Part shown: positions 5,441 to 63,350 of the stretch, in pieces
How the letters are laid out: every line of letters begins with the position of its first letter
Position numbering within the stretch: the first letter of the stretch is position 1
Translations under genes and position numbers: made by a program
Assembly (NCBI GenBank): GCA_050950765.1
Contig: JBMNIF010000002.1
Coordinates: 960,001 to 1,024,000, forward strand
Source of the DNA: Bdellovibrionota bacterium
Lineage (GTDB): Bacteria; Bdellovibrionota_C; UBA2361; JAAYZI01
DNA length: 64,000 bases
Direction of reading: 5' to 3'
The notes under the pieces: generated by a model
Databases searched by the model: none
Told to the model about the DNA's origin: nothing
What the model saw: the letters and a program-made list of their open reading frames with translations, nothing else

Positions 5441-5700
5441 GTTAGTTAAAAGGGGCCAGGTCTCTGTGATTCGTCTGACTAACGTTTGATTAACAGGTCT
5501 AGTAAAAATTTTAGTTAAGGGTGGGGTAAAAGGGGCTAGGTCTCTGTGATGCGTTTGAGCAACGTTTGATTAACAGGTCTAGTAAAAACTTTAGTTAAGG
5601 GTGGGGTAAAAAGGATGGCTAGGTCTCTGTGATCTCTTGGCGGATCAGTGTTTGGCTTAAAAAGGTCTAGTAAAAACTCAAGTTAAGGGGGAAAAAGGTG
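5441..5700. repeat. Tandem repeat, about 80-83 bp x3, diverged
   Basis: AGGTCTCTGTGAT at 5458, 5538 and 5621; AGGTCTAGTAAAAA...GTTAAGGG in each unit. Confidence 0.9.
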
Positions 5701-5877
5701 GGAGACACTACCTTAGCCACCTTAGGGGGGGTAAAAAGGGTCAAAAAGGGTGATTATCCGTTAATTATGTAAAAAAATATTTAATATCTAGATAGGTGTA
5801 ATATCTGGAAAATTATTGCTTTTAGCTTTAACTACTTTAAAGTAGTAACTTTTTTTAAAATATTATGCAAAAAAAAC

Positions 5878-5940
5878 TTGACGGTGGGGCACTTTGTGGG
5901 GTACAAAGCAAGAAGTGGGGCAAAGTGGGACATAGTGGCA
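5878..5940 (+). promoter_or_regulatory. mraZ/dcw promoter with MraZ-binding GTGGG boxes
   Basis: TTGACG (5878)-18 bp-TACAAA (5902); GTGG(G) at 5884, 5896, 5915, 5925 and 5935. The last three are 10 bp apart, as known for MraZ operators. Confidence 0.75.
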
Positions 5941-6061
5941 TGTTGCAGATCGCTTCTTCATGATACTTCTCCTCCTTAGATACTTACCCCATAAAGGAGC
6001 AATCCGCGATTTGTCGATAGGTTTAACTTAGCCTTTCAGTTTTTTTCTGTGGGCCGTCTTT

Positions 6062-6583
6062 ATGGACGAGGTTAAGAATGACTCAGGTTTTAGCGATGCG
6101 CTGAGCGAGGGTGAGTTATCACCTTCGCTCTCGTTTCGTGGTAATTTTGTTCACTCGGTTGACGAAAAGGGACGAGTGAGCCTTCCTTCAGAATTCAGAA
6201 AAATTTTAGCGTCTAATAACGAGAGTAGGATTGTTTTGACTAACTATATTTCCGATGGAGCACGGTGCTTGGAGGGGTTTGCACTTACAAGTTGGCTTGA
6301 TTTCGAAAATAAATTACGTCAAAAAAGTAGGTTCAGTGCGAAATTGCAAAAGTTAGAGAACTTCTATTTAAGTCGCGCTGCTGAATGCAGCATAGATAGT
6401 AGTGGAAGAGTCCTTCTCCCGCAACATTTAAGGTCTTACGCCGGTATTGAAAAAGATGTCACCTTTACCTCTTCAATTCACGGCTTTCGTATTTGGGATA
6501 CTCGCGTCTGGGATGTCATCTTTGCAGCGGCGGAAGCTGCTTTGATGGCAAATCCTGATCTTTTTGCTGATGTGGATATATAG
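6062..6583 (+). CDS. mraZ: Division/cell wall cluster repressor MraZ
   Basis: Two DxxGR motifs (DEKGRV, DSSGRV); first gene of the dcw cluster. Confidence 0.95.
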   Translation: MDEVKNDSGFSDALSEGELSPSLSFRGNFVHSVDEKGRVSLPSEFRKILASNNESRIVLTNYISDGARCLEGFALTSWLDFENKLRQKSRFSAKLQKLENFYLSRAAECSIDSSGRVLLPQHLRSYAGIEKDVTFTSSIHGFRIWDTRVWDVIFAAAEAALMANPDLFADVDI

Positions 6584-6590
6584 AAAAGGT

Positions 6591-7511
6591 ATGGGAATGG
6601 GGAAGAGTGTTCACATACCGGTTATGTTGCAGGAGACATTGGCTGCTCTTGGCGCTGAAGGTGGCGGGAAATTCTTGGATTGCACCTTAGGTGGTGCTGG
6701 ACATGCGAGAGCAATTTTAGGTGCTAACGCAAGTAATACACTTTATGCCATTGATCGAGATCCAACAGCTATTGAACGTGCAAGAGAAGAGTTCTCCGAA
6801 GAGATCGCAGCAAAACGGATGACAGTTGTGCAAGGTGCATTTTCTGATTTAGCGCACCTTTTTACTAATGAATCTTTTTCCGGAATCTTAGCAGATCTGG
6901 GAACTTCCGTTGATCAGTTGCAGGGGGATAGGGGTTTTTCCTTTAATGATAAAGGACCTCTCGATATGCGAATGGATCCCACTGCAGCACGTAGCGCTAA
7001 ACAGGTGGTTAATGAAACATCGGAACGTGAACTGTATGCAATTTTAAAGCGCGGCGGTGTAGGGCTTGAAGCGCGTGCGGTTGTAAAAGCAATCGTTGCT
7101 GCAAGACCGTTATTAACAACGGCAGATCTGGCTGAAAGTGTAAGAAAAGCCGCTCTTGGAAAAACAAATAAAGGCTTTGATCCAGCGACGGTGACTTTTC
7201 AAGCTATTCGAATTGAGGTCAATCAAGAGTTGGATGAGATAGATGCGTTGCTTGAGACGGTAAAAAAATTACTCCGTTCAAAAGGGCGTCTGGTAGTTAT
7301 CAGTTTTCATTCTTTAGAAGATAAGATCGTTGCAAAAAAGATGCGGGAGTGGAGCGGTGCAGATACTGAACCTGCAAATTGGCCGGGGAGACATACGGTG
7401 CAGCCGTTTGGAAAGCTCTTAACGAAGAAAGCTCTTTTCCCCACTGAAAAAGAGGTTGTTGAAAATTCGAAATCACGCAGTGCGCGCTTACGGATTTTCG
7501 AGAGGTATTAA
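6591..7511 (+). CDS. rsmH: 16S rRNA m4C1402 methyltransferase RsmH
   Basis: Motifs HIPVML, DCTLGGAGH, PLDMRMD, FQAIRIEVN, SFHSLED, SRSARLR. Start moved to the ATG after the mraZ stop. Confidence 0.95.
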   Translation: MGMGKSVHIPVMLQETLAALGAEGGGKFLDCTLGGAGHARAILGANASNTLYAIDRDPTAIERAREEFSEEIAAKRMTVVQGAFSDLAHLFTNESFSGILADLGTSVDQLQGDRGFSFNDKGPLDMRMDPTAARSAKQVVNETSERELYAILKRGGVGLEARAVVKAIVAARPLLTTADLAESVRKAALGKTNKGFDPATVTFQAIRIEVNQELDEIDALLETVKKLLRSKGRLVVISFHSLEDKIVAKKMREWSGADTEPANWPGRHTVQPFGKLLTKKALFPTEKEVVENSKSRSARLRIFERY

Positions 7512-7575
7512 GATAAAAAAATCGTTTTTCTGAAGTTGTGTTTTTTTGAGTTGAGTTGTGTGGAGGGATTAAGAA

Positions 7576-7899
7576 ATGAGGGGTGCTGTTTGTTTAGATT
7601 ATCAATCTGTTTATTGTACCAAGCAAGAAACAGTTAGTTCATGGTCATTATCATTAGTGTCTGCCGTGTTTTTATTATTGGCGCTTGGTTTTAAGATCTG
7701 GATCGGTATTAACTCCACAGCTCTCGGATATCAGTTGGCAGAAGAACGAACCCGCGCGGTTAATTATGATATGCAGCGACGTGAGTTAGAGTTGCAACTT
7801 TCAATATTATTAAGACCCGATAATTTAGCTCAACACGCTAAAGAATCACTCGGATTACAGGCATTAAATCCAAAGCAAGCAAGAAGAATAGTTTACTAA
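7576..7899 (+). CDS. ftsL: Cell division protein FtsL
   Basis: Small bitopic protein, transmembrane helix plus coiled coil, located between rsmH and ftsI. Confidence 0.75.
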   Translation: MRGAVCLDYQSVYCTKQETVSSWSLSLVSAVFLLLALGFKIWIGINSTALGYQLAEERTRAVNYDMQRRELELQLSILLRPDNLAQHAKESLGLQALNPKQARRIVY

Positions 7900-7916
7900 A
7901 AAGGGATTGAGCAAGG

Positions 7917-9758: not shown

Positions 9759-9793
9759 AACAGTTTACTCCCGTGAAAGCGTTTTATTAAATC

Positions 9794-14289: not shown

Positions 14290-15441
14290 ATGAAAGGAGT
14301 TTGTGAAAACGATAAAGTTCAAAAAAACGCAGGTGTCGGTGTACGAGTTCTAATTGCAGCAAGTGGAACGGGAGGGCATCTCTTTCCGGCTGTTGATATT
14401 GCACGCGCTTTTCAGAAGATAGACGAAAAGGCTGAAGTGATGTTCGTCGGTTCAGGACGTTACTTAGAAGCTGAAATCATTGATAAAGCAGGATTTACCA
14501 GATCTGTAATCGATATAGTAGGGATAAAACAACGGGGCTTGAGTGGCTTAATCGAGTTTTGCATGAAGTTGCCAAGTGCGCTTTTGCAAGGTTGGGGGAT
14601 AATCTCTCGATTTAAACCTGATATTGTAATTGGAGTCGGTGGTTATGTTACTGTAATTCCGGTGGTTTTAGCGTGGCTTCGTGGAATCCCAACATGGATT
14701 CATGAAGCTGAAAGATCTCCAGGGATGGCTAACAGATTTTTAGCGCACATCTCTTACCGTATCTCAGTTGCTTTTCAAGATGCACAAGTTTCTCAACGTG
14801 ATAAAGTTGTTTATACCGGACAGCCGATAAGGGAAGTTTTTAAAGAGATCGCTGCGGAAAATAAAGAGGTAGATATACCGCGCAACTTATTAATAACCGG
14901 AGGATCGCAAGGAGCAAACGCTCTGGATACGGTTGCAGAGGCTTTAATACCGTTTTTTAAAGAGAAGAATTTAAATATCAGGCATCAGTGCAGGCAGGAA
15001 AATCTTGAGAAACTAAAAGCTGCTTATGCGGAGAATGGTGTCACTGCTGAGGTTATGGATTTTATTCAAGACCTGCCGGAATCTTATCGTTGGAGTGACC
15101 TTATAATTGCGCGTGCTGGTGCTGGAAGTACTATGGAGATCGGAGTGATTAATCGTCCGACCATCTTCGTCCCGTTCCCGTTCGCTCAAGGGAATCATCA
15201 ACTTAAGAATGCACAAATCCTTGCAGATGCTGGAAAAGCCTTAATTGTGGAGGAGGGAGATGAGTTCTGTAATAGATTAGAAAAAGCGTTAGCAGATCTC
15301 TTAACACCAGCAATTTATAATAAGATGAAGGCTGCTCCATACCGTTCAAGATCCCTTGATGCTGCCGAAAATATCGCTAAAGGGTGTCTAAAGATTTTAA
15401 AAATTAAAAAAGGTAAATTTTTTACCTCCGTAGAAAACTAG
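14290..15441 (+). CDS. murG: Lipid II GlcNAc transferase MurG
   Basis: Motifs GTGGH, GGYV, IHE, GGSQGA, RAGAGS, HQxxNA. Confidence 0.95.
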   Translation: MKGVCENDKVQKNAGVGVRVLIAASGTGGHLFPAVDIARAFQKIDEKAEVMFVGSGRYLEAEIIDKAGFTRSVIDIVGIKQRGLSGLIEFCMKLPSALLQGWGIISRFKPDIVIGVGGYVTVIPVVLAWLRGIPTWIHEAERSPGMANRFLAHISYRISVAFQDAQVSQRDKVVYTGQPIREVFKEIAAENKEVDIPRNLLITGGSQGANALDTVAEALIPFFKEKNLNIRHQCRQENLEKLKAAYAENGVTAEVMDFIQDLPESYRWSDLIIARAGAGSTMEIGVINRPTIFVPFPFAQGNHQLKNAQILADAGKALIVEEGDEFCNRLEKALADLLTPAIYNKMKAAPYRSRSLDAAENIAKGCLKILKIKKGKFFTSVEN

Positions 15442-15900
15442 CCGATCCGTTTTTCAGTTTGAGCCCGTTCAAGTGTCCTTAGAGGGTGCTGCCACTGGTG
15501 GGTGGCACCAAATTTTTAACCGCCGCCAAGATTTGACTGATCTGCCCAATCTGAAGGGTAAGCCCCTCAATTAGGACACCCACTTTTTGCTGAAGGGTGG
15601 CACCAAATTCGCCAAACCCCAACTTTTGCTAACATCTTGATATTACTAGCAGCCCTAAAGGGTGGCACCAAATTTTTAACCTCCGTAGAAATCTAGCCGA
15701 TTCGTTTTGCAGTTTGAGCCCGTCCTGTTGTCCCTGAAGGGTGGCACCAATTTTTTAACCTCCGTAGAAATCTAGCCGATTCGTTTTTCAGTTTGAGCCC
15801 GTCCTGCTGTCCCTAGTGGGTGGCTCCACCTACAAAGCCAGCTGATCCTCCCAATCTGAAGGGTGGCACCACTTTTGACTAAAAGTGGGTGTTATTTTTT
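15415..15900. repeat. Mosaic repeat array 1 (GGGTGGCACC core plus linker modules)
   Basis: Exact cores at 15500, 15595, 15660, 15739 and 15861; degenerate cores at about 15484, 15555 and 15818; linkers shared with array 2. Confidence 0.93.
15867..15900 (+). terminator. Hairpin plus T-rich tract upstream of aspS
   Basis: CACCACTTTT-GACT-AAAAGTGGGTG followed by TTATTTTTT. Confidence 0.55.
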
Positions 15901-15970
15901 AATCGCTTGCGCTATCTTTTGAGGAAGCTTTTGAAAAAGTGAGTGTTAAGTGTCAATGGTAGTGTAAGAG

Positions 15971-17761
15971 ATGGGGAAGATAACTCTAAAAAGTGTATAT
16001 AGAACTCATACCTGTAATGAGCTAGGGGCTAAAGATATCGGTAGCGAAGTAAAACTTTCCGGTTGGATTCAACGAAAACGAGACTTGGGTGGTGTTGTTT
16101 TTGTTGATTTGAGAGACCATTACGGAATTACGCAACTTGTTTTTTCTGAAGCAGATCGTGAACAAATTCAGGATATTCGTACGGAATCTGTTATTCAAGT
16201 TTCTGGTGTCGTTAAACAACGTGAGGTCGCTAATCAAAAAATCACGACAGGTGAAATAGAGGTGCACTGCTCCTCTCTCGAAGTGTTGGGTCCAGCTCAA
16301 ATGTTGCCGTTTCAGATAGCAGAAGATGATAATGCACCTGAAACAACGCGCCTCAAGTATCGATACCTCGATTTGCGACGTGAGAAGTTGCATAAAAATA
16401 TCGTACTACGTTCAAATGTGATTAGAGCTATGCGCGAGATTATGCAGGATCTGGGCTTCTTAGAGTTGCAAACGCCGATTCTAACTAGTAGTTCTCCGGA
16501 AGGCGCACGGGATTTCCTAGTGCCGTCAAGGTTTCATCCAGGGAAGTTCTTTGCCTTACCGCAAGCTCCGCAACAGTTTAAGCAGCTGTTGATGGTCTCT
16601 GGTTTCGACAGATACTTTCAGATTGCGCCGTGTTTTAGAGATGAAGATCCTAGGGCAGATAGATCCCCAGGAGAGTTTTATCAACTTGATATCGAGATGG
16701 CATTTGCAGATCAGGAAGATGTCTTTTCAGTAGTAGAAACGTGCCTTGATGAAGTGTTTGCACGTTTTTCTAAAAATACCTTTACACGCAAACCATTTCC
16801 ACGCATCTCTTTTGCTGATTCTATGGCTTGGTACGGTACTGATAAACCTGATTTAAGGGTTAGTGTTAAGTTGCAGGATGTAACGACGCTCTTTAAGCAA
16901 TCACACTTTAAAGTTTTTGCTTCTGAAATTGCTAACGGAGGTCAGATTATAGCGTTACCGTTTACAGTTGAGGCAGCACCGTCAAGAAAATTCTTTGATA
17001 ACACAGTAGCTGAATTTAAAGACCTTTGCGGAAAGGGGTTGGCGTATCTCATATTTGAAAACGGTGAATGTAGAGGAAGTATCTCGAAGTTTGTTTCTGA
17101 AGAAGAGGTTCAAGCATTAAAAACGGAGCTGCAATTTAAAGAAGATGGTGTAACCGTTGTCTTCCTTGCTGCTGGTGTAGCTAAAGATATTTTACCGTCT
17201 TTAGGTAAGTTGCGAGTTGAGTTGGGTAAACACTTCGATCAGATGGAACGTGATATCTTTAAGTTCTGCTGGATTACTGATTTCCCGATGTACGTACCAG
17301 ATGAGGAGACAGGCGCTGTAACTTTTAGTCATAATCCGTTCTCAATGCCGCAAGGTGGGATGAAAGCTTTAGAAGAACAAGATCCCTTTACTATTCTTGC
17401 TTATCAATATGATGTTGTTTGTAACGGTTTTGAATTGAGTAGCGGTGCTATTAGGAATCATCGACCAGATATAATGTATAAGGCTTTTGAAATCGCTGGA
17501 TATTCACAAGAGGTCGTTGATGAAAAATTCGGCGGTATGATTAACGCCTTTAAATTCGGAGCCCCTCCTCATGGCGGTATCGCCCCTGGTATCGACCGTA
17601 TCGTTATGTTACTTGCTGGAGAACAAACTATCCGTGAAGTTATCGCATACCCTATGGCGCAGACTGTGGAAGACCTGATGATGGGTGCGCCCTCGGTTGT
17701 TTCTGAAAAACAGTTAAGAGACGTGCATATTCAACTCGCCCCAATAAAAGAAGGCAACTAA
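15971..17761 (+). CDS. aspS: Aspartate--tRNA ligase
   Basis: Motifs YRTHTC, DLRD, PEGARDF, ALPQAPQQFKQLLM, FRDED, GAPPHGGIAPGIDR. Confidence 0.97.
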   Translation: MGKITLKSVYRTHTCNELGAKDIGSEVKLSGWIQRKRDLGGVVFVDLRDHYGITQLVFSEADREQIQDIRTESVIQVSGVVKQREVANQKITTGEIEVHCSSLEVLGPAQMLPFQIAEDDNAPETTRLKYRYLDLRREKLHKNIVLRSNVIRAMREIMQDLGFLELQTPILTSSSPEGARDFLVPSRFHPGKFFALPQAPQQFKQLLMVSGFDRYFQIAPCFRDEDPRADRSPGEFYQLDIEMAFADQEDVFSVVETCLDEVFARFSKNTFTRKPFPRISFADSMAWYGTDKPDLRVSVKLQDVTTLFKQSHFKVFASEIANGGQIIALPFTVEAAPSRKFFDNTVAEFKDLCGKGLAYLIFENGECRGSISKFVSEEEVQALKTELQFKEDGVTVVFLAAGVAKDILPSLGKLRVELGKHFDQMERDIFKFCWITDFPMYVPDEETGAVTFSHNPFSMPQGGMKALEEQDPFTILAYQYDVVCNGFELSSGAIRNHRPDIMYKAFEIAGYSQEVVDEKFGGMINAFKFGAPPHGGIAPGIDRIVMLLAGEQTIREVIAYPMAQTVEDLMMGAPSVVSEKQLRDVHIQLAPIKEGN

Positions 17762-18812
17762 CCCCGTCTTACTAGAGGGTGGCACTTTTTACGCCGTCCA
17801 GATCTAGCTAGCTCATTTTGTAGTTGCAGCCCGTTCAATCGTCCTTGAAGGGTGGCAGCAAAATCGCCAAACCCCAACTTTTGCTAACATCTTGATATCA
17901 CTAGCATCCCTAAAGGGTGGCACCAAATTTTTCGCCCCAATAAAAGAAGGCAACTAACCCCGTCTTACTAGAGGGTGGCACTTTTTACGCCGTCCAGATC
18001 TAGCTAGCTCATTTTGTAGTTGCAGCCCGTTCAATCGTCCTTGAAGGGTGGCACCAAATTTTTAACCTCCGTCCAGATCTAGCTAATTCGTTTTTTAGTA
18101 TCACCCCGTTCAATCGTCCTTGAAGGGACTTTTAGCTGTTGGGTGGCACCAAATTTTTAACGTCCTTGAAGGGTGGCACCAAATTTATCCAGTCGCCTAA
18201 GCCGTCAAAGCAGCAAAAAAAGAAGGGTAGCACCAAATTTTTAACCTTCGTCGAAATCTAGCCGATTCGCTTTTCAGTTTGAGCCCGTCCTAGCGTCCCT
18301 GAAGGGTGGCACCAAATTTATCCAGTCGACTTTTGCTAACATCTTGATATCACTAGCATCCCTGAAGGGTGGCACCAAATTTTCCTCCAAATTTTTAACC
18401 TCCGTCCAGATCTAGCTAACTCGTTTTGTAGTTGCAGCCCGCAATCGTCCCTGAAGGGTGGCACCAAATTTTTTACCCAGCCTTCCAATTAGGACACCCA
18501 CTTTTAGCTGAAGGGTGGCACCAAATTTTTAACCTTCGTACAGATCTAGCTAATTCGTTTTTTAGTATCACCCCGTTCAATCGTCCTTGAAGGGTGGCAC
18601 CAGATCTGCCAATTTCTAAGTTTTAGCTAACATATTGATATTATTACTAGCCTTGAAGTACTAGCCTTGAAGGGTGGCACCAAATTTATCCAGTCGCCTA
18701 AGCCGTCAAAGCGGCAAAAAAAGAAGGGTGGCACCAAATTTTTAACCTTCGTCGAAATCTAGCCGATTCGTTTTTCAGTTTGAGCCCGTTCTAGCAGCCT
18801 TGAAGGGTGGAG
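17736..18812. repeat. Mosaic repeat array 2, about 16 cores in one orientation
   Basis: GGGTGGCAC(C) or close variants at 17777, 17850, 17915, 17973, 18046, 18141, 18171, 18225, 18304, 18367, 18456, 18513, 18592, 18672, 18726 and 18805, joined by recurring linker types. Confidence 0.95.
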
Positions 18813-20244
18813 CTACATCTTGCGGAAGGAGGCCTTTTTCGAACTCTTTTCGTAGGGTGCGGATCTCTTCTACCTCTTCCGTTTCTGAAGAGGGGTAGCC
18901 CTCTGTTAACCTTAGGGCGGATAGACAACTACTTTTCGAGTGAGCGGAACCTGCTATCGGGAGTAGCCTCTGATCTTGATCTCGGCGTTTAGCACCGCCG
19001 TTTATCCCTGTTCCTTCTGGAGAGGTGCAGAATTCAGTACCTGCCGAATCGTACGGCGGATAGATATACCAGTTACCATCACGCCCCTTGTAGTGCGTTG
19101 CAAAATGAAAACGGGTGATTGAATTTGTGGCACCGCTGGTAGCGCCTCCCCATTGCGTAGCGTGACAACCATAAAAAGGACAATCTGCATCTGATAAAGG
19201 TGCTCCCGCTAAACTCATGCCGACAGCGCGGCTAAGTTGATGCGCAATAATCCAATACAGATCGATAAAGGTGTCTTGTGTGGCAGGCGCAGAGACCTCC
19301 TTCAGCCGTTGTAAGATCTCAGAATGCGCAACTACTAAAGCATCGTTTATAATAATACGATCAGTCGTGAGTGGCGTGCTTGTAGACCCAGGGATCTTTT
19401 TAGCATACCAAAATGAATCGGTAAGGTGTTGCGGCTTAGTCGAAATCCAAAGACCTCTCTGATCTGATAATTTAGCATCAGATCTATTTTTTGTTAGAGA
19501 CCTGCTAAAATTAGATACGTATTGATCTTCGGTAATAAAATGTAACGCTACTCCACTCTTTTCAAAATAACCTAGACCAAGATTGTCAGGATCGTGAATA
19601 AAAAGATCTTTTTGTAGTGGGTTTGTTGAAATCCAACCAGTGACGGTAAAAAAACCACGATACTCTTCAAATAATGTCAAACCATCACCACGAAAATCGC
19701 TAAGAGGTAGATCGTCATTATCACTATCTTGCAGCGATCTCTGAACGGCGTATTGATCTTCCCAAACATCAGCGATCTTATTTCTGTTGTTATCAACGGG
19801 AATGGTATAGCCCCCTTGCTGTGTTGTCTTGCAAGGTATCCAGACACCGTTCTGTAACGTTTCAGCAGTGATCTCTCCCCAAGCAGCACCATCAAGCGCT
19901 TTTATAATAACAGAAGCCGTTCTTACTTTTGTACGTGTTTCTATGCTAAAGCCGTTAGTAGTTTCGGATGCCTCTAAGAAAGAGCTCTGATTTGGCTTAA
20001 AGATCAGATCAAAATTATCACCATCTCCATAATTAAGAGCCACCCCTTTATAACGTGTTACATTAGATAAATTAAAACGGAAGCGCAGGGGTTGTGGTGA
20101 AGAAGTTTGTGCTGTGATCGTTATCTCGCCATTAGGTCTAGGTCGCCAAGAGTATTCCGGAGCATTCAGAGTAGCAGTAACTTCTGCCTGAACGATTACA
20201 GGTGCAAAGAAAAAAGATATAAGAGCTAGTTTTAAGAGCGACAT
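18775..20244 (-). CDS. Secreted protein with degenerate zincin-like motif
   Basis: Signal peptide; DNNRNKIADVWE and GDGLTLFEEYRGF acidic motifs; IAHQLSRAVG where HELGHxxG would be expected. Confidence 0.6.
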   Translation of the reverse strand: MSLLKLALISFFFAPVIVQAEVTATLNAPEYSWRPRPNGEITITAQTSSPQPLRFRFNLSNVTRYKGVALNYGDGDNFDLIFKPNQSSFLEASETTNGFSIETRTKVRTASVIIKALDGAAWGEITAETLQNGVWIPCKTTQQGGYTIPVDNNRNKIADVWEDQYAVQRSLQDSDNDDLPLSDFRGDGLTLFEEYRGFFTVTGWISTNPLQKDLFIHDPDNLGLGYFEKSGVALHFITEDQYVSNFSRSLTKNRSDAKLSDQRGLWISTKPQHLTDSFWYAKKIPGSTSTPLTTDRIIINDALVVAHSEILQRLKEVSAPATQDTFIDLYWIIAHQLSRAVGMSLAGAPLSDADCPFYGCHATQWGGATSGATNSITRFHFATHYKGRDGNWYIYPPYDSAGTEFCTSPEGTGINGGAKRRDQDQRLLPIAGSAHSKSSCLSALRLTEGYPSSETEEVEEIRTLRKEFEKGLLPQDVAPPFKAARTGSN

Positions 20245-47262: not shown

Positions 47263-48213
47263 ATGGATGAATCAAGACTTTCAGAGTTTGCTTTATTGGC
47301 TAAGATCTTACATAGACAGGAGTCTCCCGATCTTATTTTGCCGAATGGAGATGATGCCGCTGTAATAAAGATCGGCAGATCTCTTGTAGCTATTACAACT
47401 GATGCCGTTGTTGAAAATAAACACTTTTCATTCTCTTATTTTTCAGGGAGACAGGTCGGAATTAAAAGTGTTGAGAGTGCAGTTTCTGATCTTATTGCTG
47501 TGGGTGCTGTGCCGAAAGGGATCGTTATAGCGTTGAGTATTAGTGAACTGACTGAAACTGTGCTTATAGAGGAGGTTTATAAAGGTATCTATGCAGCTTC
47601 TGAGCGTTTAGGATGTCAAGTTTTAGGAGGGGATCTAACAGTTAACTCCGGAGGGCTGGAAGTTGCAGTGACGGCTTTAGGGCATATTGAGAAGAAGCGA
47701 GATATTATAACGAGGTCTGGTGCTAAGGCTGGTGATTTAGTGTGTGTAACGGGTGCGCTTGGCGGTTCTATGGCGGGATTTAGAGCAATTAGGGCAGGGT
47801 TAGCAGGCTTTAAGGCGACTAGATTAAAACATTTACAACCGCTGTGTCGTTTCGATCTGTGTGGTAAGTTAAAAGGGGTGCACGCTGCCATAGATATTAG
47901 TGACGGACTCTCTTCAGAGATAAATCATATCTGTCAAGCGAGTCATTGTGGAGCGATGATTACATCTTCTGATATCCCTATTACGCCGGAGGTGCGTCAG
48001 ATCGCTGCAACTTTAAATGAAAACCCTTTAGATTATGCTTTAAATGGCGGAGAGGATTATGAACTACTTTTAGCAGTAGCTCCGAAACGGTATAATGATC
48101 TTATGGGAAGTGTGATCGGTGTCTTTACGGAGTCGCCTGAGATATTGATAGAGATTGATAATCAACAACGGACACTACAACCACGTGGGTACGATCACTT
48201 GGTAAAAGGGTAG
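47263..48213 (+). CDS. thiL: Thiamine-monophosphate kinase
   Basis: Motifs GDDAA, SDLIAVG, GGD, DISDGL, GGEDYEL, GYDH. Confidence 0.93.
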   Translation: MDESRLSEFALLAKILHRQESPDLILPNGDDAAVIKIGRSLVAITTDAVVENKHFSFSYFSGRQVGIKSVESAVSDLIAVGAVPKGIVIALSISELTETVLIEEVYKGIYAASERLGCQVLGGDLTVNSGGLEVAVTALGHIEKKRDIITRSGAKAGDLVCVTGALGGSMAGFRAIRAGLAGFKATRLKHLQPLCRFDLCGKLKGVHAAIDISDGLSSEINHICQASHCGAMITSSDIPITPEVRQIAATLNENPLDYALNGGEDYELLLAVAPKRYNDLMGSVIGVFTESPEILIEIDNQQRTLQPRGYDHLVKG

Positions 48214-48350
48214 TAAAAAAGTTTGTTTATTAAGTGAGGTGTTTTTTTTATTTGTAAAATATGTTTGCGAGTACGATCACTTGGTAAAAAGTTAGTAAAA
48301 AGTTTTGTTTGTTAATGGAAGTGTTTTTTTATTTGTAAGATATAAATGCT
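48189..48350. repeat. Tandem duplication, 82 bp x2, including the thiL 3' end
   Basis: GTACGATCACTTGGTAAAA at 48189 and 48271; GTGTTTTTTT(T)ATTTGTAA in both units. Confidence 0.88.
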
Positions 48351-53815: not shown

Positions 53816-53867
53816 GATAGATCTTTTGATAAGAGCGCCTCCTAAAATAGGGGGGGTGAGTTTCTGC

Positions 53868-54075
53868 GAAAATGGAGGAGCCTTATAACTTGATCTTTTT
53901 TCTTCGGGTAGCCTCTTAGCGCTATCAATCGCTTCTTTAATTTGAGGGAGGAAAAAGGGGCTTGTCCTATAACCTGATTTTTTTCTTCGGGTAGCCTCTT
54001 AGCGCTATCAATCACTTTTTTAATTTAAGGGAGGAAAAAATGGAGGAGTCTTATAGCCTAATCTTTCCTTTTCCT
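53868..54075. repeat. Tandem repeat, about 84 bp x2.5, including the 3' end of the 54051 gene
   Basis: TCTTCGGGTAGCCTCTTAGCGCTATCAATC at 53901 and 53984; stop-codon-like segment at 53883, 53967 and 54051. Confidence 0.88.
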
Positions 54076-54623
54076 TCTTGTGGTATTTTAGGTACCGTTT
54101 CTCTTTCTGTTTCGGGGAGAGCGGTTTTGATCTTTATACCCTCTTCGAGCTCTTCTTCCTCCTCTTCTTTTTTGCTTTGAAGTAGTTTTTGTGTGTTTAA
54201 ACTATTTAGGCGTTGGAATTCTTCCAGCTCTTCTTCTGCTTCTTTTCTGTTTTGTGAATTAGGTTGAAAAAAAGATTGATCGAGTTGTGAAAGTTTATCT
54301 GCGATAAGATTAACGGCGCGATCTAAGATCGTTTCCGAATAGTTCTCATCAGCTAAGAGGGGTTTTGTTTGTTTCCTCTTAGCTCTGTTTTTAGTTTTAG
54401 TTTTACGGGATGAAATTAATTTAGGCGCAGAGGTATCAGGGGTTTTTTCGTTAAAAAATGATCTTTCTTTCTTAAGAGATTTTCTCAAGCTAGGTGTGAC
54501 TTTTGCTGAGAAGGTGGAGCTTGAAAGTCCCTGTGAATTGACGGTAGAGTGCTGCTTTAGTGCCACCTCTTCTTTTAAAGATGCCTCCCTTTTTTTTATT
54601 TTTATCTCAAGATCTTCGCTCAT
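54051..54623 (-). CDS. Hypothetical charged, probably disordered protein
   Basis: 190 aa, K/E/S-rich; no family recognised. Confidence 0.55.
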   Translation of the reverse strand: MSEDLEIKIKKREASLKEEVALKQHSTVNSQGLSSSTFSAKVTPSLRKSLKKERSFFNEKTPDTSAPKLISSRKTKTKNRAKRKQTKPLLADENYSETILDRAVNLIADKLSQLDQSFFQPNSQNRKEAEEELEEFQRLNSLNTQKLLQSKKEEEEEELEEGIKIKTALPETERETVPKIPQEGKGKIRL

Positions 54624-56872: not shown

Positions 56873-56889
56873 CTTTTTTTGAGGTCGTT

Positions 56890-57873: not shown

Positions 57874-58065
57874 AAACGCACTCTTAAACTTTAGCCCCCT
57901 TTCCCGTGTTGTTTTAAGTATGTTAGGCTCCAGACTGTTTCCGTTTACCGCGGGTGTGAAGCGTAATCAGGTGAGCGCTTAGACCTAATTTTCTATCTTT
58001 GTGTGGTTTTGAGCGGTGTTGAAAGTGGGTGTCGCATAGTTGCATCAAAAAGTAGGAGTGCTGTC

Positions 58066-59952
58066 TTGAGTCAGTTTTTAAAAAATATCTTTTGGTATCT
58101 CTTTATAGTCGGTATTTTTTTATCTCTTTATTTTGCAAGTGAAAATAATATCAATGCGAAGCAGGAGATCTCGTATTCTGATTTCTTATTAGCTGTAGAA
58201 AAAGATGATGTTGTTCAGGTGACGATGCAGGGGAATGTGATCGATGGTAAATATCGCGCCTCAGAGAAAGATTTTAAGGTAATTGCTCCGAAACATGATG
58301 AGTTGATTGATGAGTTGAGAGCAAAAAATGTTTCAATAACGGTTAAGGAGCCGGAAGATCAACCGTGGTATCTGTTACTTATTATCAATGCCCTTCCTAT
58401 CTTATTATTTATCGGTATCTGGATTTTCTTTATGCGACAGATGCAGATCGGTGCTGGAAAAGGGATGAGCTTTGGGAAATCGAAAGCTAAACTTCTAACT
58501 GAAAGTCAGCAGAAAGTCACCTTTGCTGATGTTGCTGGAATTGATGAAGCGCGTGCCGAGTTGGAAGAGATTATTGCGTTCTTAAAGAATCCGAAAAAGT
58601 TTACCCGTTTGGGTGGGCGTATCCCTAAAGGTGTACTTTTAATCGGCTCTCCAGGGACGGGTAAGACGTTATTGGCTAAAGCGATCGCAGGTGAAGCGGG
58701 GGTGCCGTTTTTTAGTATCTCAGGCTCTGATTTTGTAGAGATGTTTGTCGGTGTCGGTGCTTCCAGAGTTAGAGACCTCTTTATTCAAGGGAAGAAGAAC
58801 GCACCGTGTATTATCTTTATCGATGAGATTGATGCTGTTGGACGACACCGCGGTGCTGGTATGGGGGGCGGACATGATGAGCGTGAACAGACCCTTAATC
58901 AGTTGTTGGTTGAGATGGACGGTTTTGAGTCTAATGAAGGGGTGATCTTGATCGCTGCTACAAATAGACCTGATGTTTTAGATCCTGCCCTGCTTAGACC
59001 TGGTAGGTTTGATCGTAGGGTAGTGGTGCCGACACCGGATCTGAACGGTAGGATCGGGATCTTAAAGGTGCATTCCAAAAAGGTGCCGTTAGCGGACGAT
59101 GTGGATCTCACTAAATTAGCGCGAGGAACCCCTGGATTTACGGGAGCAGACCTTGAGATCCTTGTTAATGAGGCGGCGTTGAATGCTGCACGTCTGGATA
59201 AAAACTCCGTTATGCAGGATGATTTCGAGTTTGCGAAAGATAAGGTCATGATGGGGGCGGAGAGACGTTCGTTGTTGCTTTCTGATAAGGAAAAGAAGGT
59301 GACTGCCTATCATGAATCGGGGCACGCTTTAGTAGCGAAGATGTTACCTAATGCGGATCCGGTGCATAAATTAACGATTGTACCACGTGGAATGGCGTTA
59401 GGGTTAATGCAGCAGTTGCCGGAAGATGATAAGCACACCTATTCGAGAGACTACTGGATGGATCAGTTATCCGTATTTTTTGGTGGTCGGATGGCAGAAG
59501 ATCTGATCTTTAACGATCAAAACACAGGAGCTAGCTCCGATATTGAACGCGCCACTAATATCGCACGACGGATGGTTTGTGAATGGGGCATGAGTGAAAA
59601 ATTAGGACCTGTTTGTTATGCCACTAAAGAAGAGCACGTCTTCTTGGGGCGAGAGATCGGAAAGCCTAGAGAGCATTCAGAAAGTACGCAAGTGGAGATA
59701 GATGCTGAAGTTAAGCGTATTATTTTAGAGAGGCAGAACGTTGCACGTGAGATCTTAAGTGAAAATATTGAGATCTTACACCGCTTAGCTGCTGAGGTGA
59801 TTGAGCGTGAGACTTTAACAGCAGAGGATATCGATATGATAATCGCTGGAGAAGAGTTGCCACCATTACCGGATCCGGAAGATAAAGAAAAGGCAAAAAA
59901 AGATAGTAACGGAACTCCTAACGACTCGGGCAATGTTTCCGTTGTTGCATAA
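58066..59952 (+). CDS. ftsH: ATP-dependent zinc metalloprotease FtsH
   Basis: Motifs [29 protein letters not shown] start chosen after AGGAG. Confidence 0.97.
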
Positions 59953-59978
59953 AAAATTATAAAGCGGAGAGTGTTTCA

Positions 59979-60788: not shown

Positions 60789-61690
60789 GAAGCGTAGGAC
60801 TGTTTCTTATTTCAGCGTGTATTGCGGTAGGGCTTTTTTATTTTGTGCATAGTCAAAGTAATAATGTGCAAAGGGTTTTGTTGATGCCCGTAGAAATTCA
60901 CAATAAGCCGCATGATAAGGTGGTTGTGATGCAGCCTGAATCAAGGCAGGTGCAGGTGACGGTGCAAGGACCATCATTTTTAGTAGCAGATGTGGCGGTT
61001 TCAAACCATAGTGTGAAGATGATCTTACCGAAGGATGTTAGTGATGGTTATAGCATGACGTTAAAAGAGAGTATGCTTGATCTCCCTTCGGCAGTGGAGG
61101 TGTTAAACTTTGAGCCGAAAAATATAACGGTTAAAATTGAGGATGTTCAGACCAAACGGGTTAAAGTTTTTGTGCCACGTATCGGTAAGATTAAAGACCG
61201 TTATCAGATAGTATCGTTTAAGACCGTTCCTGAGGAGGTCACTTTAGAGGGGGCTGCTAGTGAAATTGCAGATGTTTCGTATGTTCATACGGAGCCTTTA
61301 AATATGTGGAACATAGAGGAGGATCTGACTTTAAATCTTCCGTTAGCTGATAAGTGGCGAAATGCGCAGATGAAGCCTGCTGAAGTTGTGGTGATGGTTA
61401 AAATTGCTCCGGAGCAGGGAACTCGTGTTTTTGAAAAAGTTGAGATTGAGGTACGATCGAGACGACCCCGAAAAGTTACGGTAGAACCTGCTTCTGTTTG
61501 GGTGAAAGTTTTAGGGCCGAAGGATGTTGTGCAGGCGATGAAAGATAATGATATTACCGCCTATGTTAGGTTGGGGGATGCACCCAATAAAACCTCGAGT
61601 AAAGTTAGGTTTGATCTTCCGCAAGGGGTTTCAGCGATCGGCTGGGAGCCGACGACGGTTAATATCATTCAAACAGGTGATGTGCCGTAA
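60785..61690 (+). CDS. cdaR: CdaR/YbbR-domain protein
   Basis: TM anchor plus repeated P..V.V.V.GP (YbbR) units, between cdaA and glmM. Confidence 0.85.
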   Translation: MRSVGLFLISACIAVGLFYFVHSQSNNVQRVLLMPVEIHNKPHDKVVVMQPESRQVQVTVQGPSFLVADVAVSNHSVKMILPKDVSDGYSMTLKESMLDLPSAVEVLNFEPKNITVKIEDVQTKRVKVFVPRIGKIKDRYQIVSFKTVPEEVTLEGAASEIADVSYVHTEPLNMWNIEEDLTLNLPLADKWRNAQMKPAEVVVMVKIAPEQGTRVFEKVEIEVRSRRPRKVTVEPASVWVKVLGPKDVVQAMKDNDITAYVRLGDAPNKTSSKVRFDLPQGVSAIGWEPTTVNIIQTGDVP

Positions 61691-61743
61691 GTGTAGATCA
61701 TTAAGAGGCGATACTGTTTTTTATGTGCTGAAAGGAGCTGCTC

Positions 61744-63114
61744 ATGGTGCAGGAGTGTAGTGTAAGGAAGTATTTCGGGACGGATGGGATCCGTTGTGTG
61801 GCGGGTGTCTCTCCCCTTGATCCGGAAAGTTTAGTCCGTTTAGGACGAGCTGTTGGGGAGGTTTTCTTAAATAATCATGGGAAACGCACCGTTATTATCG
61901 GTAAAGATACCAGATTGTCGGGATATATGATTGAGAATGCTTTGGTAGCTGGTATCACTTCAGTTGGTGCTAATGTTAGGTTAACAGGGCCGTTACCAAC
62001 AGCAGGTTTATCGTATCTTACACGGAGTATGCGTTCTGATGCTGGTATAATGATTTCAGCTTCGCACAACCCTTATGAAGATAATGGGATTAAGATCTTT
62101 GCTTCTGATGGTTATAAGTTGCCTGATGAGGTGGAGTTAAAGATAGAGTCATTGATGCAGCTCGGTGCTTTGGACGGCAAGGTGGCAGATCCAGCGGATA
62201 TCGGAAAAGCCTTCCGCCTAGATGATGCTGTGGGTAGGTACACGGTCTATTTGAAAAATTGTTTTCCGAGAGAGCTCTCTTTAGATGGATTAAGGATCGG
62301 TTTGGATTGCGCCAATGGTGCTGCTTATGTTGTAGCACCCCAAGTTTTTGAGGAGTTGGGGGCTGAAGTTGTCTCTCGTGGAATAAGCCCGAACGGTCGT
62401 AATATCAACGCCGGATTTGGTAGCTTATACCCCGAAATAGTGAGAAAATTAGTTGTTGAGCAGAACTTACATCTAGGAATTTCATTAGATGGTGATGCAG
62501 ATAGGGTGATCTTTTCTGATGAAAAAGGGAATGTTCTTGATGGAGATATGATTATCGCGATCTGCGCTGTTTACCTGAAAGAGCACGGACTTCTACCAAA
62601 AAATCAGATCGTGGCAACCGTCATGTCTAACTTAGGTTTAGAGAAGTTTTTAGGACAGCACGGCATCTCCGTTATCAGGTCTCAAGTGGGGGATCGTTAT
62701 GTTTTAGAAGAGATGCGTAAGGAGCAGATCGCTCTTGGCGGAGAGCAATCTGGACACGTTATCTTTGCTGATAGCTCCACAACGGGTGACGGTATCTTAA
62801 CAGCTTTGAAGGTCTTGGAGATAATGGTTCGTAGCGGTAAAACGGTTTCAGAGTTGACAGCTGGGTATCAGAAGTTTCCGCAAAAGTTGATAAGTATAAA
62901 AGTTTCTCAAAAACCTCTCCTCTCTACACTCCCTGAGGTTTGCGAAGCGATTAAAAAAGTTGAAGATGAATTGAAAGAGGGCGGACGTGTTTTAGTTAGG
63001 TACTCGGGCACGGAGAATAAAGCGCGTGTTATGGTTGAATGTGAGAGTGAAGATCGTTGTCAAAAATATGCTGCTGATCTAGCAGAGGTGCTGGAAAAAA
63101 CTATCGGTGAATAA
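61744..63114 (+). CDS. glmM: Phosphoglucosamine mutase
   Basis: Motifs FGTDGIR, GKDTRLSG, SASHNP, DGDADR, GGEQSGH, RYSGTE. Confidence 0.96.
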   Translation: MVQECSVRKYFGTDGIRCVAGVSPLDPESLVRLGRAVGEVFLNNHGKRTVIIGKDTRLSGYMIENALVAGITSVGANVRLTGPLPTAGLSYLTRSMRSDAGIMISASHNPYEDNGIKIFASDGYKLPDEVELKIESLMQLGALDGKVADPADIGKAFRLDDAVGRYTVYLKNCFPRELSLDGLRIGLDCANGAAYVVAPQVFEELGAEVVSRGISPNGRNINAGFGSLYPEIVRKLVVEQNLHLGISLDGDADRVIFSDEKGNVLDGDMIIAICAVYLKEHGLLPKNQIVATVMSNLGLEKFLGQHGISVIRSQVGDRYVLEEMRKEQIALGGEQSGHVIFADSSTTGDGILTALKVLEIMVRSGKTVSELTAGYQKFPQKLISIKVSQKPLLSTLPEVCEAIKKVEDELKEGGRVLVRYSGTENKARVMVECESEDRCQKYAADLAEVLEKTIGE

Positions 63115-63350
63115 CAAGGATTTTTTTACCGTTATTATGATCTGCTTGAGTATATATTCGGAGAGCGGAGAGGAAAAAAGTTAGTGGTGAATAACAAGGA
63201 TTTTTTTACCGTTATTATGATCTCCTTGAGTATGTATTCAGAGAGTGGAGAGGAAAAAAGTATCGGTGAATGATGAGATAGCAAGAAATTTTTTACCGTT
63301 ATTATGATTTAGTTGGGTATGTTTTTAGAGAGGAAAAAAGTTAGTGGTGA
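63102..63350. repeat. Tandem repeat, about 80 bp x3, including the glmM 3' end
   Basis: GGTGA at 63106, 63186, 63265 and 63346; TTTTTTACCGTTATTATGAT and GAGAGGAAAAAAG in each unit. Confidence 0.9.

Follow-up and report, generated by a model that had tools for sequence, protein, structure and literature searches.

The question raised by this stretch of DNA is why tandem repeats of different sequence should recur with nearly the same period. Within the window, by which we mean the whole 64-kb stretch that was analysed, a sequence-only reading had described five such loci with a period of about 80 bp, and Tandem Repeats Finder (TRF) recovered all five at the same coordinates, with periods of 79-83 bp; above a period of 16 bp, these are the only arrays that TRF finds in the window. 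An 80-bp minisatellite at 5447..5689 on the forward strand (TRF period 80, 2.9 copies, 84% matches, the third copy being diverged) occupies the spacer separating two divergent gene starts rather than a gene end, with a RecD2/TraA-like helicase encoded at 3978-5288 (−) and mraZ at 6062-6583 (+); GGGTGGGGTAAAAGGGG is present in each of its units, and the unit has no other copy in the genome. The 82-bp minisatellite at 48189..48343 (+; TRF period 82, 1.9 copies, 86% matches; motif GGTAGTAAAAAAG) holds the last eight codons and the stop (48211-48213) of thiL within its first copy. Two good copies and diverged edge copies make up the 83-bp minisatellite at 53864..54065 (+), which carries the motif GGGAGGAAAAA(G/A); TRF reports period 83, 1.9 copies and 93% matches at 53884-54039, and the stop of ORF 54051-54623(−) falls in the diverged third, and last, copy. 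At 63092..63352 (+), an 80-bp minisatellite of ~3.3 units (TRF at 63106-63308: period 80, 2.4 copies, 87% matches) repeats the motif GGAAAAAA at 63093, within glmM, and at 63172, 63252 and 63332, with the glmM stop (63112-63114) in unit 1. The fifth locus is of another type: two repeat systems of this genome are represented in the window, namely a REP/BIME-like family (family A) and a set of locus-specific minisatellites (system B).

This fifth locus, at 15.4-15.9 kb and 17.7-18.8 kb, belongs to a REP/BIME-like family that is tied to a RAYT-like Y1 (HUH) transposase present in six copies. The locus comprises a family A cluster at 15424..15880 (+), which contains a 79-bp array at 15653-15828 (TRF period 79, 2.2 copies, 91% matches), and a modular array at 17765..18815 (+) between aspS (stop 17759-17761) and ORF 18775-20244(−), in which several module types part the conserved cores at a spacing of 48-80 bp and a second copy of the aspS 3′ end occurs at ~17932. 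BLAST placed the sequence of 15424..15880 at 109 places in its own genome and in 0 of 30 relatives. Genome-wide, the core GGGTGGCACC, which is followed by AAATTTTTAACCTCCGT, was counted 1,167 times with at most one substitution, most commonly at a spacing of 79 bp, and the 79-bp unit gave 515 BLAST hits in about 139 clusters; in nearly all family A clusters the units lie in one orientation only, as direct tandem modules. The RAYT-like gene scored 29.1 bits with Pfam Y1_Tnp (cut-off 23) and 67.4 bits with NCBIfam REP_Tyr_transpos, which is below the cut-off of 80, and the best PDB match of its product was 4ER8, TnpA-REP (E 5e-5). Inverted family A cores are located on both sides of the gene. 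Family A is thus like REP/BIME-RAYT systems in its high-copy extragenic core, its Y1 gene with inverted cores, and its ordered tandem clusters that include flanking sequence; tandem REPIN clusters with flanking sequence are described in Pseudomonas fluorescens SBW25 (PMC3116915). However, REPIN doublets are inverted, whereas family A units are direct repeats of which only some cores are hairpin-capable: CTGGTG-CCACC-CACCAG beside the RAYT gene can pair, most units read GAAGGGTGGCACCAAA, and an alignment of 154 family A units yielded no consensus structure. In contrast to a single-copy (domesticated) RAYT, moreover, the genome holds six copies (six Y1_Tnp hits) that are 99-100% identical at the protein level and bear a C-terminal extension of ~180 aa. 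The initial statement that no described system behaves in this way consequently does not apply to the locus at 15.6 kb and 18.2-18.8 kb, which is of the described REP/BIME-RAYT kind, while the other four loci belong to system B. A known structured RNA was rejected for 15300-18900, where no Rfam family matched at E<=1, and a tRNA-derived repeat for the window arrays, ARAGORN having found just two ordinary tRNA-Arg genes in the window. A CRISPR array was rejected on repeat structure, as whole units recur, the 'spacer' part included, and REP-family modules occur at many loci.

When TRF was applied to the whole 2.64-Mb genome, 425 collapsed arrays were obtained, 264 with a period of at least 30 bp, and a period peak at 77-84 bp was present (68 of the 425), together with a class at 42-47 bp (40 arrays). 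The quantum of ~80 bp was thereby confirmed, but a second one of ~44 bp had been missed. Removal of every array with a unit resembling another's in an all-vs-all BLAST left 133 singleton arrays, of which 42 had periods of 77-84 bp, 34 of 42-47 bp and 10 of 48-76 bp, the rest being distributed over 30-41 bp (8), 85-200 bp (25) and >200 bp (14); the singleton peak lies at 80-81 bp. A lag scan conducted without TRF and with the REP family masked gave the same two peaks, lag 81 reaching a maximum of 19 loci and lag 44 reaching 10, against 0-2 loci each at lags 20-41 and 49-60. Together, the singleton counts and the lag scan verified that period quantization beyond slippage holds genome-wide and across unrelated sequences. 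System B amounts to ~75 locus-specific minisatellites, which include four of the five window loci (5447, 48189, 53884 and 63106).

For 72 of the 80 singleton arrays of the two period classes (43 of the 80-bp and 37 of the 44-bp class), the unit has no copy elsewhere in the genome. Motif-aligned units have almost no resemblance outside the motif: of 686 pairs, 15 reached z>=3, versus 6 once the units had been rotated out of register as a control (mean z 0.17 versus 0.01), and C1:7290 and C1:31565 represent one homologous unit pair. The units of system B are duplicated local DNA. The tRNA-Asp gene at C2:311060-311136, for instance, has downstream of it three repeats with a period of 44 bp, each made of its final ~35 nt and CCTTTTTCC. 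Likewise, units take in the ends of conserved domains: the ThiL model aligns up to residue 313 of 316, with the gene end included in the 48189..48343 unit; a CCA-adding/poly(A) polymerase-type enzyme is matched as far as residue 440 of 452, and 53 bp of its gene belong to an array; for an RsmE-type methyltransferase the match reaches residue 247 of 253, and the array takes up 36 bp of the gene. The GlmM model aligns up to residue 451 of 456. In the youngest clean case, C2:1029622-1029784, the final 77 nt of a RibD_C gene form the unit, which is present in 2.0 copies with 98% identity; the stop of this gene lies within GGAGGAATAAAC, and the junction homology is just 3 nt. Since the units are copies of local DNA, tRNA-Asp and gene ends among them, the length-measuring duplication process suggested at the outset is the simplest reading.

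Overlap with a stop codon does not by itself prove local origin, because the last codons of murG and its TAG (15439-15441) come from the first family A unit, which starts at ~15424. Of the four loci at which final-codon overlap had been reported, thiL, glmM and ORF 54051-54623(−) stand, whereas murG is involved only via this REP-family unit, the 79-bp array proper beginning ~210 bp downstream of the murG end. Genome-wide, 21 of the 80 arrays overlap a stop only, 8 a start only, 3 both and 39 neither, with 9 inside genes; in the null, which consists mostly of non-coding segments, 15.9% are stop-only and 19.4% start-only, and the stop:start ratio differs (p=0.004). With 21 of 80 arrays stop-only and 39 at neither end, 'mostly at stop codons' was overstated, but a ~2-fold enrichment at stops was retained.

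The loci are not fully unrelated, as they have in common a polypurine motif, GAGG(A/T)AAAAA(G). RGGWAAAA occurred in 25 of 43 units of the 80-bp class and 14 of 37 units of the 44-bp class, compared with 7.3% and 3.7% of random non-repeat intergenic windows (p about 1e-17 and 1e-11), and distances between motifs peaked at 43-45 and 79-82 bp. The motif was missing or weak (PWM score <7) in 11 of the 43 units of the 80-bp class and in 17 of the 37 of the 44-bp class. Reading in motif orientation, 17 of 52 arrays end 9-15 nt past the motif start, where ~6 would be expected by a hand estimate from the 7-nt window, made without a formal test; arrays ending at the motif are thus one third only, and the start phase is diffuse. 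A hand tally placed the motif on the leading strand in 36 of 52 cases, which is not clearly above the background of 61% of intergenic motif hits and 60% of genes.

Whether the copies are real was addressed by the contigs of a related strain, diverged by ~1.5-2%, from other studies. All three arrays in the 47-64 kb region differ in these by whole units. The 48189..48343 array has one unit fewer (joint 48219>48321, skipping 101 letters, with 17 letters between; X9 and X13), the 53864..54065 array about one unit fewer (joint 53914>54005, skipping 90, with 1 letter between; X9), and the 63092..63352 array two units fewer (joint 63121>63290, skipping 168; X9 side 255, X13 side 22). This bore out the earlier argument that diverged copies speak against assembly stutter. 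Within arrays, edge copies are more diverged than central ones.

The arrays appear to be peculiar to this genome. A spaced-motif pattern gave 34 hits here (control 1), whereas none of the phylum's 123 other genomes had more than 2. No 77-84-bp arrays were detected in 1.6 Mb of four same-phylum genomes (14 arrays with a period of at least 30 bp, one of them at 47), nor in 1.38 Mb from 170 unrelated glmM loci (about 9 such arrays). The search for co-occurring genes in the 94%-complete genome did return the RAYT-like Y1 transposase and three HU/IHF proteins, but no RVT_1, and the inventory is otherwise ordinary: Pol I with 5′ nuclease, one SSB of 158 aa, MutS and MutL are encoded, as are an Hc2-like K/A-repeat protein and an HU with an H1-like tail, and neither a histone fold nor Ku was found. 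RAYT-like homologues are present in 115 of 124 phylum genomes, often in many copies, and Hc2-like proteins exceed the Pfam cut-off in 14 of 124, including relatives without arrays; neither therefore explains arrays that occur in this genome only.

Several known systems resemble system B in part. Like the MIRU-VNTR loci of Mycobacterium tuberculosis, it has intergenic tandem units of tens of bp in two size classes with strain-polymorphic copy number, and Supply and colleagues (1997, 2000) are said to have found that MIRU units often touch the ends of flanking genes. The loci at 5447, 48189, 53884 and 63106 are intergenic and within 40-100 bp in unit size, and the last three of them, the ones compared, differ in copy number between strains, but they lack unit homology: MIRU units are homologous between loci as one dispersed family, whereas 72 of 80 units in system B are locus-unique pieces of local gene or tRNA sequence sharing a motif of ~12 nt. 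From REP/BIME, system B differs by having no REP core and by lying away from REP clusters, with 5 of the 80 singleton arrays within 300 bp of a REP core versus 30% of random intergenic windows. Human hypervariable minisatellites, which Jeffreys and colleagues reportedly showed in 1985 to share a G-rich core in otherwise unrelated units, likewise combine many unrelated units, a short purine/G-rich core and variable copy number. That core may promote array creation or resizing. Human units, however, vary widely in length while those of system B keep to two values, and the analogy extends to behaviour, not to membership. Tandem duplications of 5-108 bp reportedly arise in rad27/FEN1 or Pol I 5′-nuclease mutants (Tishkoff and colleagues, 1997; Nagata and colleagues, 2002), and such flap-type duplications are linked to lagging-strand processing. 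They share with system B a size of tens of bp, arbitrary local sequence and very short direct repeats at the ends, but they spread over sizes without a quantum, and the Pol I 5′ nuclease domain of this genome looks intact. In insertion sequences with long target-site duplications, such as IS1634, a protein complex sets a fixed stagger and hence a direct duplication of defined length. This possibility was rejected for system B, as the five IS families present here (5-10 copies each) make 4-7-bp duplications and no element lies between the copies.

The best reading, although we hold it with slightly less than even confidence, is that the motif seeds an in-place duplication whose length a physical ruler would set, with unequal exchange acting afterwards. 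Local DNA adjoining the polypurine/A-tract motif would be duplicated in place, the duplication ending at the motif and reaching back a measured ~44 or ~80 nt. The resulting two-copy array would then grow, shrink and homogenize by unequal exchange or slippage, and thus behave as a VNTR. This model draws on what was observed: the units come from local DNA and have a motif in common, their length is quantized, arrays often end at the motif, and strains differ by whole units. We infer that a physical ruler acting in the mutational step determines the quantization, as opposed to unit ancestry or selection on array function.

Were ancestry responsible, old mobile elements of ~80 and ~44 bp, similar to MIRU or REP/BIME modules, would have inserted near gene ends and diverged between loci, each retaining its inherited period, with concerted evolution keeping the copies within a locus alike. 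Common descent of this kind would fit the nearly identical period of family A (79 bp) and the presence next to its core of GGAGGTTAAAAA, which is near-identical to the system B motif, as well as the family A origin of the murG end, the weak similarity excess of motif-aligned units, the homology of C1:7290 and C1:31565, and the two unit classes of 51-54 and 77 bp in a 12-locus MIRU table (PMC3558156). It is nonetheless rather improbable in view of the many units without a copy elsewhere, the tRNA-Asp 3′ half and conserved protein-domain ends inside units, and the 98%-identical two-copy array at C2:1029622 built from the last 77 nt of a gene; the singleton peak, moreover, is at 80-81 rather than 79 bp, and singleton arrays avoid REP clusters. 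Selection would instead let duplications arise at all lengths and keep those with a 44/80-bp motif spacing for a need at the protein or RNA level, for example a nucleoid protein of H1-like or HU type that binds there, or a function in the 3′ untranslated region. The recurrence of the motif at fixed spacing, the Hc2-like and H1-tailed HU proteins and the ~2-fold enrichment at gene 3′ ends are what this would predict, but within arrays the motif core shows no stronger conservation than other unit positions (pairwise difference 0.19 versus 0.17), close strains have different copy numbers at all 3 loci examined, and the arrays keep no constant orientation relative to genes, their context being convergent for 19, divergent for 14, tandem for 38 and intragenic for 9. 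The conservation of the motif and the unstable copy number also tell against the fixed nucleoprotein spacing suggested at the outset. Nor was there an excess of promoter-like or terminator-like sites at the arrays, or a general hairpin in the units (mean z −0.7; 8 of 52 below −2), and the Hc2-like proteins of array-free relatives also speak against selection, to which we assign a small likelihood.

Generic slippage combined with recombination thresholds, where microhomology-dependent births fall with distance and RecA-dependent exchange needs a minimal unit, predicts one broad mode, whereas two sharp peaks were seen, most arrays deviating by no more than ±2 bp, with the range of 49-76 bp nearly empty and almost nothing at 20-41 bp. 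It would account for the short junction homologies (3 nt in the youngest case) and the decay of edge copies that unequal exchange predicts, and intergenic tandem-repeat enrichment is described as general in prokaryotes (PMC12418385); as it leaves both the shared motif and the absence from relatives and other bacteria unexplained, we regard it as very unlikely. That the arrays were made by assembly stutter or mis-joins is scarcely credible, given that copies within an array differ at 7-16% of positions, that arrays are present on all five contigs, and that these loci recur in the other-study contigs, where they differ by whole units and have their own substitutions. The one point in favour of an artefact is that short-read contigs of the same strain break at the arrays, and these consequently do not confirm the copy numbers of the reference strain.

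If the duplication is indeed measured, its ruler could lie in the geometry of the replisome or of single-strand binding, or be an HUH enzyme acting on single-stranded DNA. Our preferred candidate, though an unlikely one, is a template switch during replication: the nascent strand would stall past the A-tract and re-pair upstream, over a single-stranded loop that one SSB tetramer stabilises. E. coli SSB has binding modes of 35 and 65 nt. The ratio of these modes, 1.86, is close to the 1.8 found here, but the absolute sizes do not match 44/80. As a second choice, which we consider improbable, the RAYT-like enzyme might cleave and rejoin single-stranded DNA at look-alikes of the motif, such as the GGAGGTTAAAAA that adjoins the core in the family A unit. 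A lineage-specific duplication of arbitrary motif-adjoining DNA by a molecular ruler with settings of ~44 and ~80 nt is possible, albeit doubtful. Its nearest parallels are the repeat duplication by Cas1-Cas2 and the target-site duplication of transposons, from which it would differ by the lack of an inserted element. If true, bacteria would have a new class of duplication, measured in length and independent of sequence, by which hypervariable minisatellites would renew themselves.

The genome that holds the window comprises 2.64 Mb in five contigs with 40% G+C, and the window corresponds to C2:960001-1024000. The sequence-only reading had claimed five long-period arrays in the window, and TRF returned exactly five at the same coordinates, namely 5447-5689 (period 80), 15653-15828 (period 79), 48189-48343 (period 82), 53884-54039 (period 83) and 63106-63308 (period 80), with 7-16% of positions differing between copies. 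Genome-wide, TRF delivered 425 collapsed arrays, 68 with a period of 77-84 bp and 40 with a period of 42-47 bp; the period was at least 30 bp in 264, and arrays of this length class occupy 77,465 bp. When the 264 unit consensuses were compared with one another by all-vs-all BLAST, 100 arrays fell into one large family, family A, a few small families emerged, and 133 arrays were left as singletons. The singleton periods were sharply bimodal, as 42 of the 133 fell at 77-84 bp and 34 at 42-47 bp, the remainder being distributed over 48-76 bp (10), 30-41 bp (8), 85-200 bp (25) and more than 200 bp (14). Furthermore, a TRF-independent scan, in which family A, the REP cores and the multi-member families (5.7% of the genome) were masked and 36-bp windows were called if at least 32 positions matched at the lag in question, peaked at lag 81 (at most 19 loci) and lag 44 (10 loci), with harmonics near 160 and only 0-2 loci at lags 20-41 and 49-60. 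The singleton spectrum and the lag scan thus bear out genome-wide the near-constant period of ~80 bp that had been noted among different sequences. A perfect (100%) tandem duplication of 1,200 bp was also seen at C1:276203-278593, within a very long ORF (C1:274952-283612).

One of the five window loci is covered by family A, which fits the REP/BIME-RAYT systems and is a known kind of element. At 15.4-15.9 kb and 17.7-18.8 kb, its arrays combine the conserved block GAAGGGTGGCACCAAATTTTTAACCTCCGT with several recurring modules. The 79-bp unit has 515 BLAST matches in ~139 clusters, and the 10-nt REP core GGGTGGCACC occurs 1,167 times genome-wide, with core-to-core spacing classes of 32-33, 43, 53, 65, 79 (125 cases), 88 and 110 bp; these discrete spacings mirror a small set of recurring modules. 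When 200-bp windows were drawn at random from mostly non-coding sequence, around 27-30% were no farther than 100-300 bp from a REP core. The last codons of murG and its TAG are inside a family-A unit (window 15400-15441), and the 3′ end of aspS (…CGCCCCAATAAAAGAAGGCAACTAA) is duplicated ~195 bp downstream, within the REP array (window 17735-17960). No consensus structure was apparent in an alignment of 154 family-A units, and the unit was not found in the 30 relatives searched.

Linked to these cores is ISd, a protein-coding repeated segment of 1.49 kb with six copies. Its 322-aa product matches Pfam Y1_Tnp (29.1 bits), scores 67.4 bits against the NCBIfam REP-associated tyrosine transposase, under the cut-off of 80, and has E. 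coli TnpA-REP as best solved structure (4ER8, E 5e-5). This RAYT-like Y1 gene is located outside the window, at C1:184279-185247 and in five further copies. The encoded proteins are 99-100% identical and carry a ~180-aa C-terminal extension, and inverted REP cores lie on both sides of the gene, and some of these cores can form a CTGGTG/CACCAG hairpin. Full-length homologues of the 322-aa protein were detected in 115 of 124 phylum genomes, the highest number in any one genome being 18 matches. Descriptions of RAYTs usually present them as single-copy; family A differs from textbook REP/BIME-RAYT systems in its multi-copy transposase gene as well as in its direct rather than inverted units. In being ordered tandem arrays that include flanking sequence, its members resemble the REPIN clusters that one account describes in P. 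fluorescens SBW25 (PMC3116915).

The four other window loci are among about 75 locus-specific MINISATELLITES. For their analysis we used 80 singleton arrays with periods of 41-48 bp (37 arrays) or 77-85 bp (43 arrays). In 72 of the 80 the unit has no copy in the genome outside its own locus, showing that it is not dispersed. The origin of the units is visible at several genes. Thus, downstream of tRNA-Asp (C2:311060-311136) the last ~35 nt of this gene, together with CCTTTTTCC, recur in three decayed copies at a period of 44, forming an array of the T-arm/acceptor 3′ half (C2:311060-311290) in which each copy ends in CCTTTTTCC. The thiL unit begins 8 codons ahead of the stop, the ThiL model being aligned up to residue 313 of 316, and array units likewise reach into the aligned end of a CCA-adding/poly(A) polymerase-type enzyme and into that of an RsmE-type methyltransferase. 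In the youngest clean array (C2:1029622-1029784; 2.0 copies, 98% identity), the unit corresponds to the 3′-terminal 77 nt of a RibD_C gene with the stop within GGAGGAATAAAC, and the junction has 3 nt of homology. Together these findings demonstrate that the singleton units derive from local DNA.

One motif, G-N-G-A-G-G-(A/T)-A-A-A-A-A-(G), emerged from de novo k-mer counts and an EM profile, and a T-run often comes after it. A profile score of at least 7 was reached by 32 of 43 units in the 80-bp class and 20 of 37 in the 44-bp class, against 10% and 5.6% of random non-repeat intergenic windows, with the profile having been trained on the very units it scored. The training-free pattern RGGWAAAA was present in 25 of 43 and 14 of 37 units, compared with 7.3% and 3.7% of random windows, and motif-to-motif spacing peaked genome-wide at 43-45 and 79-82 bp. 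Outside the motif the units are essentially unrelated, since z was at least 3 in just 15 of 686 motif-aligned unit pairs versus 6 in a control rotated out of register. In motif orientation, 17 of 52 arrays lost their periodicity 9-15 nt past a motif start (~6 expected by a hand estimate), and the array start phase was mildly enriched 0-11 nt from the motif (16 of 52 versus ~10 expected). The motif thus marks a boundary. A fixed start phase was rejected, the phase being diffuse, as was the sum 80 = 44 + 36, given that 80-bp units have no second motif at +36 or +44. Nor is the motif the usual ribosome-binding site, as GG[AT]AAAA precedes just 26 of 856 ATG starts. Within arrays it is no better conserved than the rest of the unit, although edge positions are influenced by copy cutting. 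It lies on the leading strand in 36 of 52 arrays, which is not clearly different from the 61% background. The GC skew turns from negative to positive at C2 ~580-620 kb, suggesting a replication origin, and ~60% of the predicted genes run in the direction of replication.

The copy number of the arrays is unstable. Contigs from two sequencing runs of other studies (X9 and X13), representing a strain diverged by ~1.5-2%, cross all three arrays in the 47-64 kb region. In this strain, one unit is removed at 48219>48321 (101 skipped, 17 letters between), about one unit at 53914>54005 (90 skipped, 1 letter between) and two units at 63121>63290 (168 skipped). Contigs of the runs X6 and X7, from the same strain as the reference, were broken at the arrays. 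In the short glmM allele, a ~21-nt motif-bearing direct repeat still flanks the single unit on both sides, which implies that the arrays are older than the strain split and that their copy number fluctuates. Edge copies are less alike than central copies, as fits unequal exchange. In motif orientation the first adjacent pair is closer than the last in 35 arrays and the reverse holds in 16 (Wilcoxon p=0.0009), a polarity that may reflect directional growth or be a product of edge-copy cutting. At window 58340-58906, contig depth rose about ten-fold in all four runs, with many contigs stopping there and unlike flanks; this was discarded as a genome feature, because part of the 58003-59952 gene is conserved and draws contigs from other organisms.

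As for their position, the arrays had been described as lying mostly at stop codons. Among the 80 arrays, 21 contact a stop only, 8 a start only, 3 both and 39 neither, and 9 are intragenic; under the null, 15.9% would be stop-only and 19.4% start-only, and the observed stop:start ratio differs (p=0.004). Accordingly, a modest excess at 3′ ends was verified, but with 21 stop-only arrays against 39 touching neither end, "mostly" did not hold. A duplication across a stop would be harmless because the first copy leaves the gene whole, and this could produce a modest 3′-end excess without special targeting.

The arrays are a peculiarity of this lineage among the genomes compared. In 1.38 Mb around 170 glmM loci of other bacteria, we found ~9 arrays with a period of at least 30 and none with a period of 77-84. 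A phylum control of 1.6 Mb from four genomes, one of them closed, contained 14 such long-period arrays, with periods of 30, 33, 47, 55, 60, 100, 103, 125, 128, 129, 144, 148, 171 and 246. The density of long-period arrays is hence ~100 per Mb here versus 6-9 per Mb in the controls. Moreover, RGGWAAAAA-N69-74-RGGWAAAAA has 34 matches here (reversed-pattern control, 1) and 0-2 per genome in 123 other phylum genomes, many of which are fragmented and may have lost repeats. The nearest GlmM is 68% identical within the phylum and 65% among metagenome contigs.

Several identities and causes were considered and set aside. The units matched no Rfam family or tRNA-like fold, a hairpin or cruciform was not common to them (mean z -0.7, below -2 in just 8 of 52), and promoter-like and terminator-like content in the 47-64 kb region did not exceed that of shuffled sequences. 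Singleton arrays were depleted rather than enriched near REP cores. A long target-site duplication is not the source, as the five IS families give target duplications of 4-7 bp; these families, three DDE_Tnp_1, one rve/IS3-like and the Y1 element, have 5-10 near-identical copies each, one of which ends where the window starts (window 3-479, minus strand, and C2:955569-960602). The genome encodes Pol I with 5′ nuclease, a 158-aa SSB, three HU/IHF proteins, MutS and MutL. A histone fold, RVT_1 and Ku were not found in this genome, which is 94% complete and leaves their absence unproven. On the minus strand we identified an Hc2-like protein of 182 aa, nearly all 15-aa K/A-rich repeats (C2:11051-11599; Pfam HC2, 62.4 bits), and an HU-family protein with an H1-like K/A/P-rich N-terminal tail (C3:530400-530909). 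Hc2-like proteins pass the Pfam cut-off in 14 of 124 phylum genomes, two sampled array-free relatives among them, and both the RAYT and the Hc2-like proteins were rejected as lineage-specific cause since each occurs in array-free relatives.

Tandem duplications are usually seen as accidents of unmeasured slippage, but for the singletons the quantization is too sharp and the independent, unrelated loci are too many for such a source. Arrays descending from a diverged mobile family would conflict with the local origin of the units, while selection on spacing is opposed by the instability of the arrays and by the motif being no more conserved than the rest of the unit. We infer instead that the singletons are a new bacterial minisatellite variant with a two-valued length ruler. 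Duplication would occur locally and in place, seeded at the polypurine/A-tract motif and reaching back a measured 44 or 80 nt, and array size would then be altered by unequal exchange. The observation of the sequence-only reading was in this way confirmed and extended, and its interpretation, a length-measuring process near gene ends or selection for spacing, was upheld only in part.

As a candidate ruler we prefer a template switch during which one SSB tetramer might hold the looped-out nascent strand. E. coli SSB has binding modes of ~35 and 65 nt, and the ratio of these modes (1.86) is close to the 1.8 seen here, although the absolute sizes do not match. Our second choice would be the RAYT-like HUH enzyme, cutting and rejoining single strands at motif look-alikes; it is considered because family A has GGAGGTTAAAAA beside the core and a nearly equal period. 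Neither the SSB nor the RAYT-like ruler accounts for array-free relatives with similar genes.

Among described repeats, MIRU-VNTRs, REP/BIME-RAYT systems and human 'core' minisatellites come closest. MIRU-VNTRs are intergenic and polymorphic, and the singletons share both properties with them as well as two unit sizes; MIRU units, however, form one homologous family. Human 'core' minisatellites have a core common to loci and no length quantum, so that the singletons resemble them in the former and differ in the latter. Any likeness to REP/BIME-RAYT systems is limited to family A. Two unit sizes appear in a MIRU-VNTR unit-size table (PMC3558156), one E. coli survey assigns most minisatellites to REP elements and lists 18 non-REP loci among 1,037 variable loci (PMC2884548), and an enrichment of prokaryotic tandem repeats in intergenic DNA has been described (PMC12418385). 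Keyword searches of a limited literature collection retrieved nothing that describes a quantized unit length in bacterial repeats of unrelated sequence.

The arrays are ready strain markers for an organism that 14 studies have captured in metagenomes from anaerobic digesters and bioreactors, and their breaking of short-read assemblies calls for caution with such assemblies. At ~75 independent loci of one genome, unrelated local sequence has been duplicated at one of two precise lengths beside one short motif. Should the ruler act in the mutational step, it would disclose, legibly in the sequence itself, a physical dimension of the machinery for replication or recombination, and it would offer a testable handle on the birth of minisatellites, a question open for bacterial VNTRs and human 'core' minisatellites alike.
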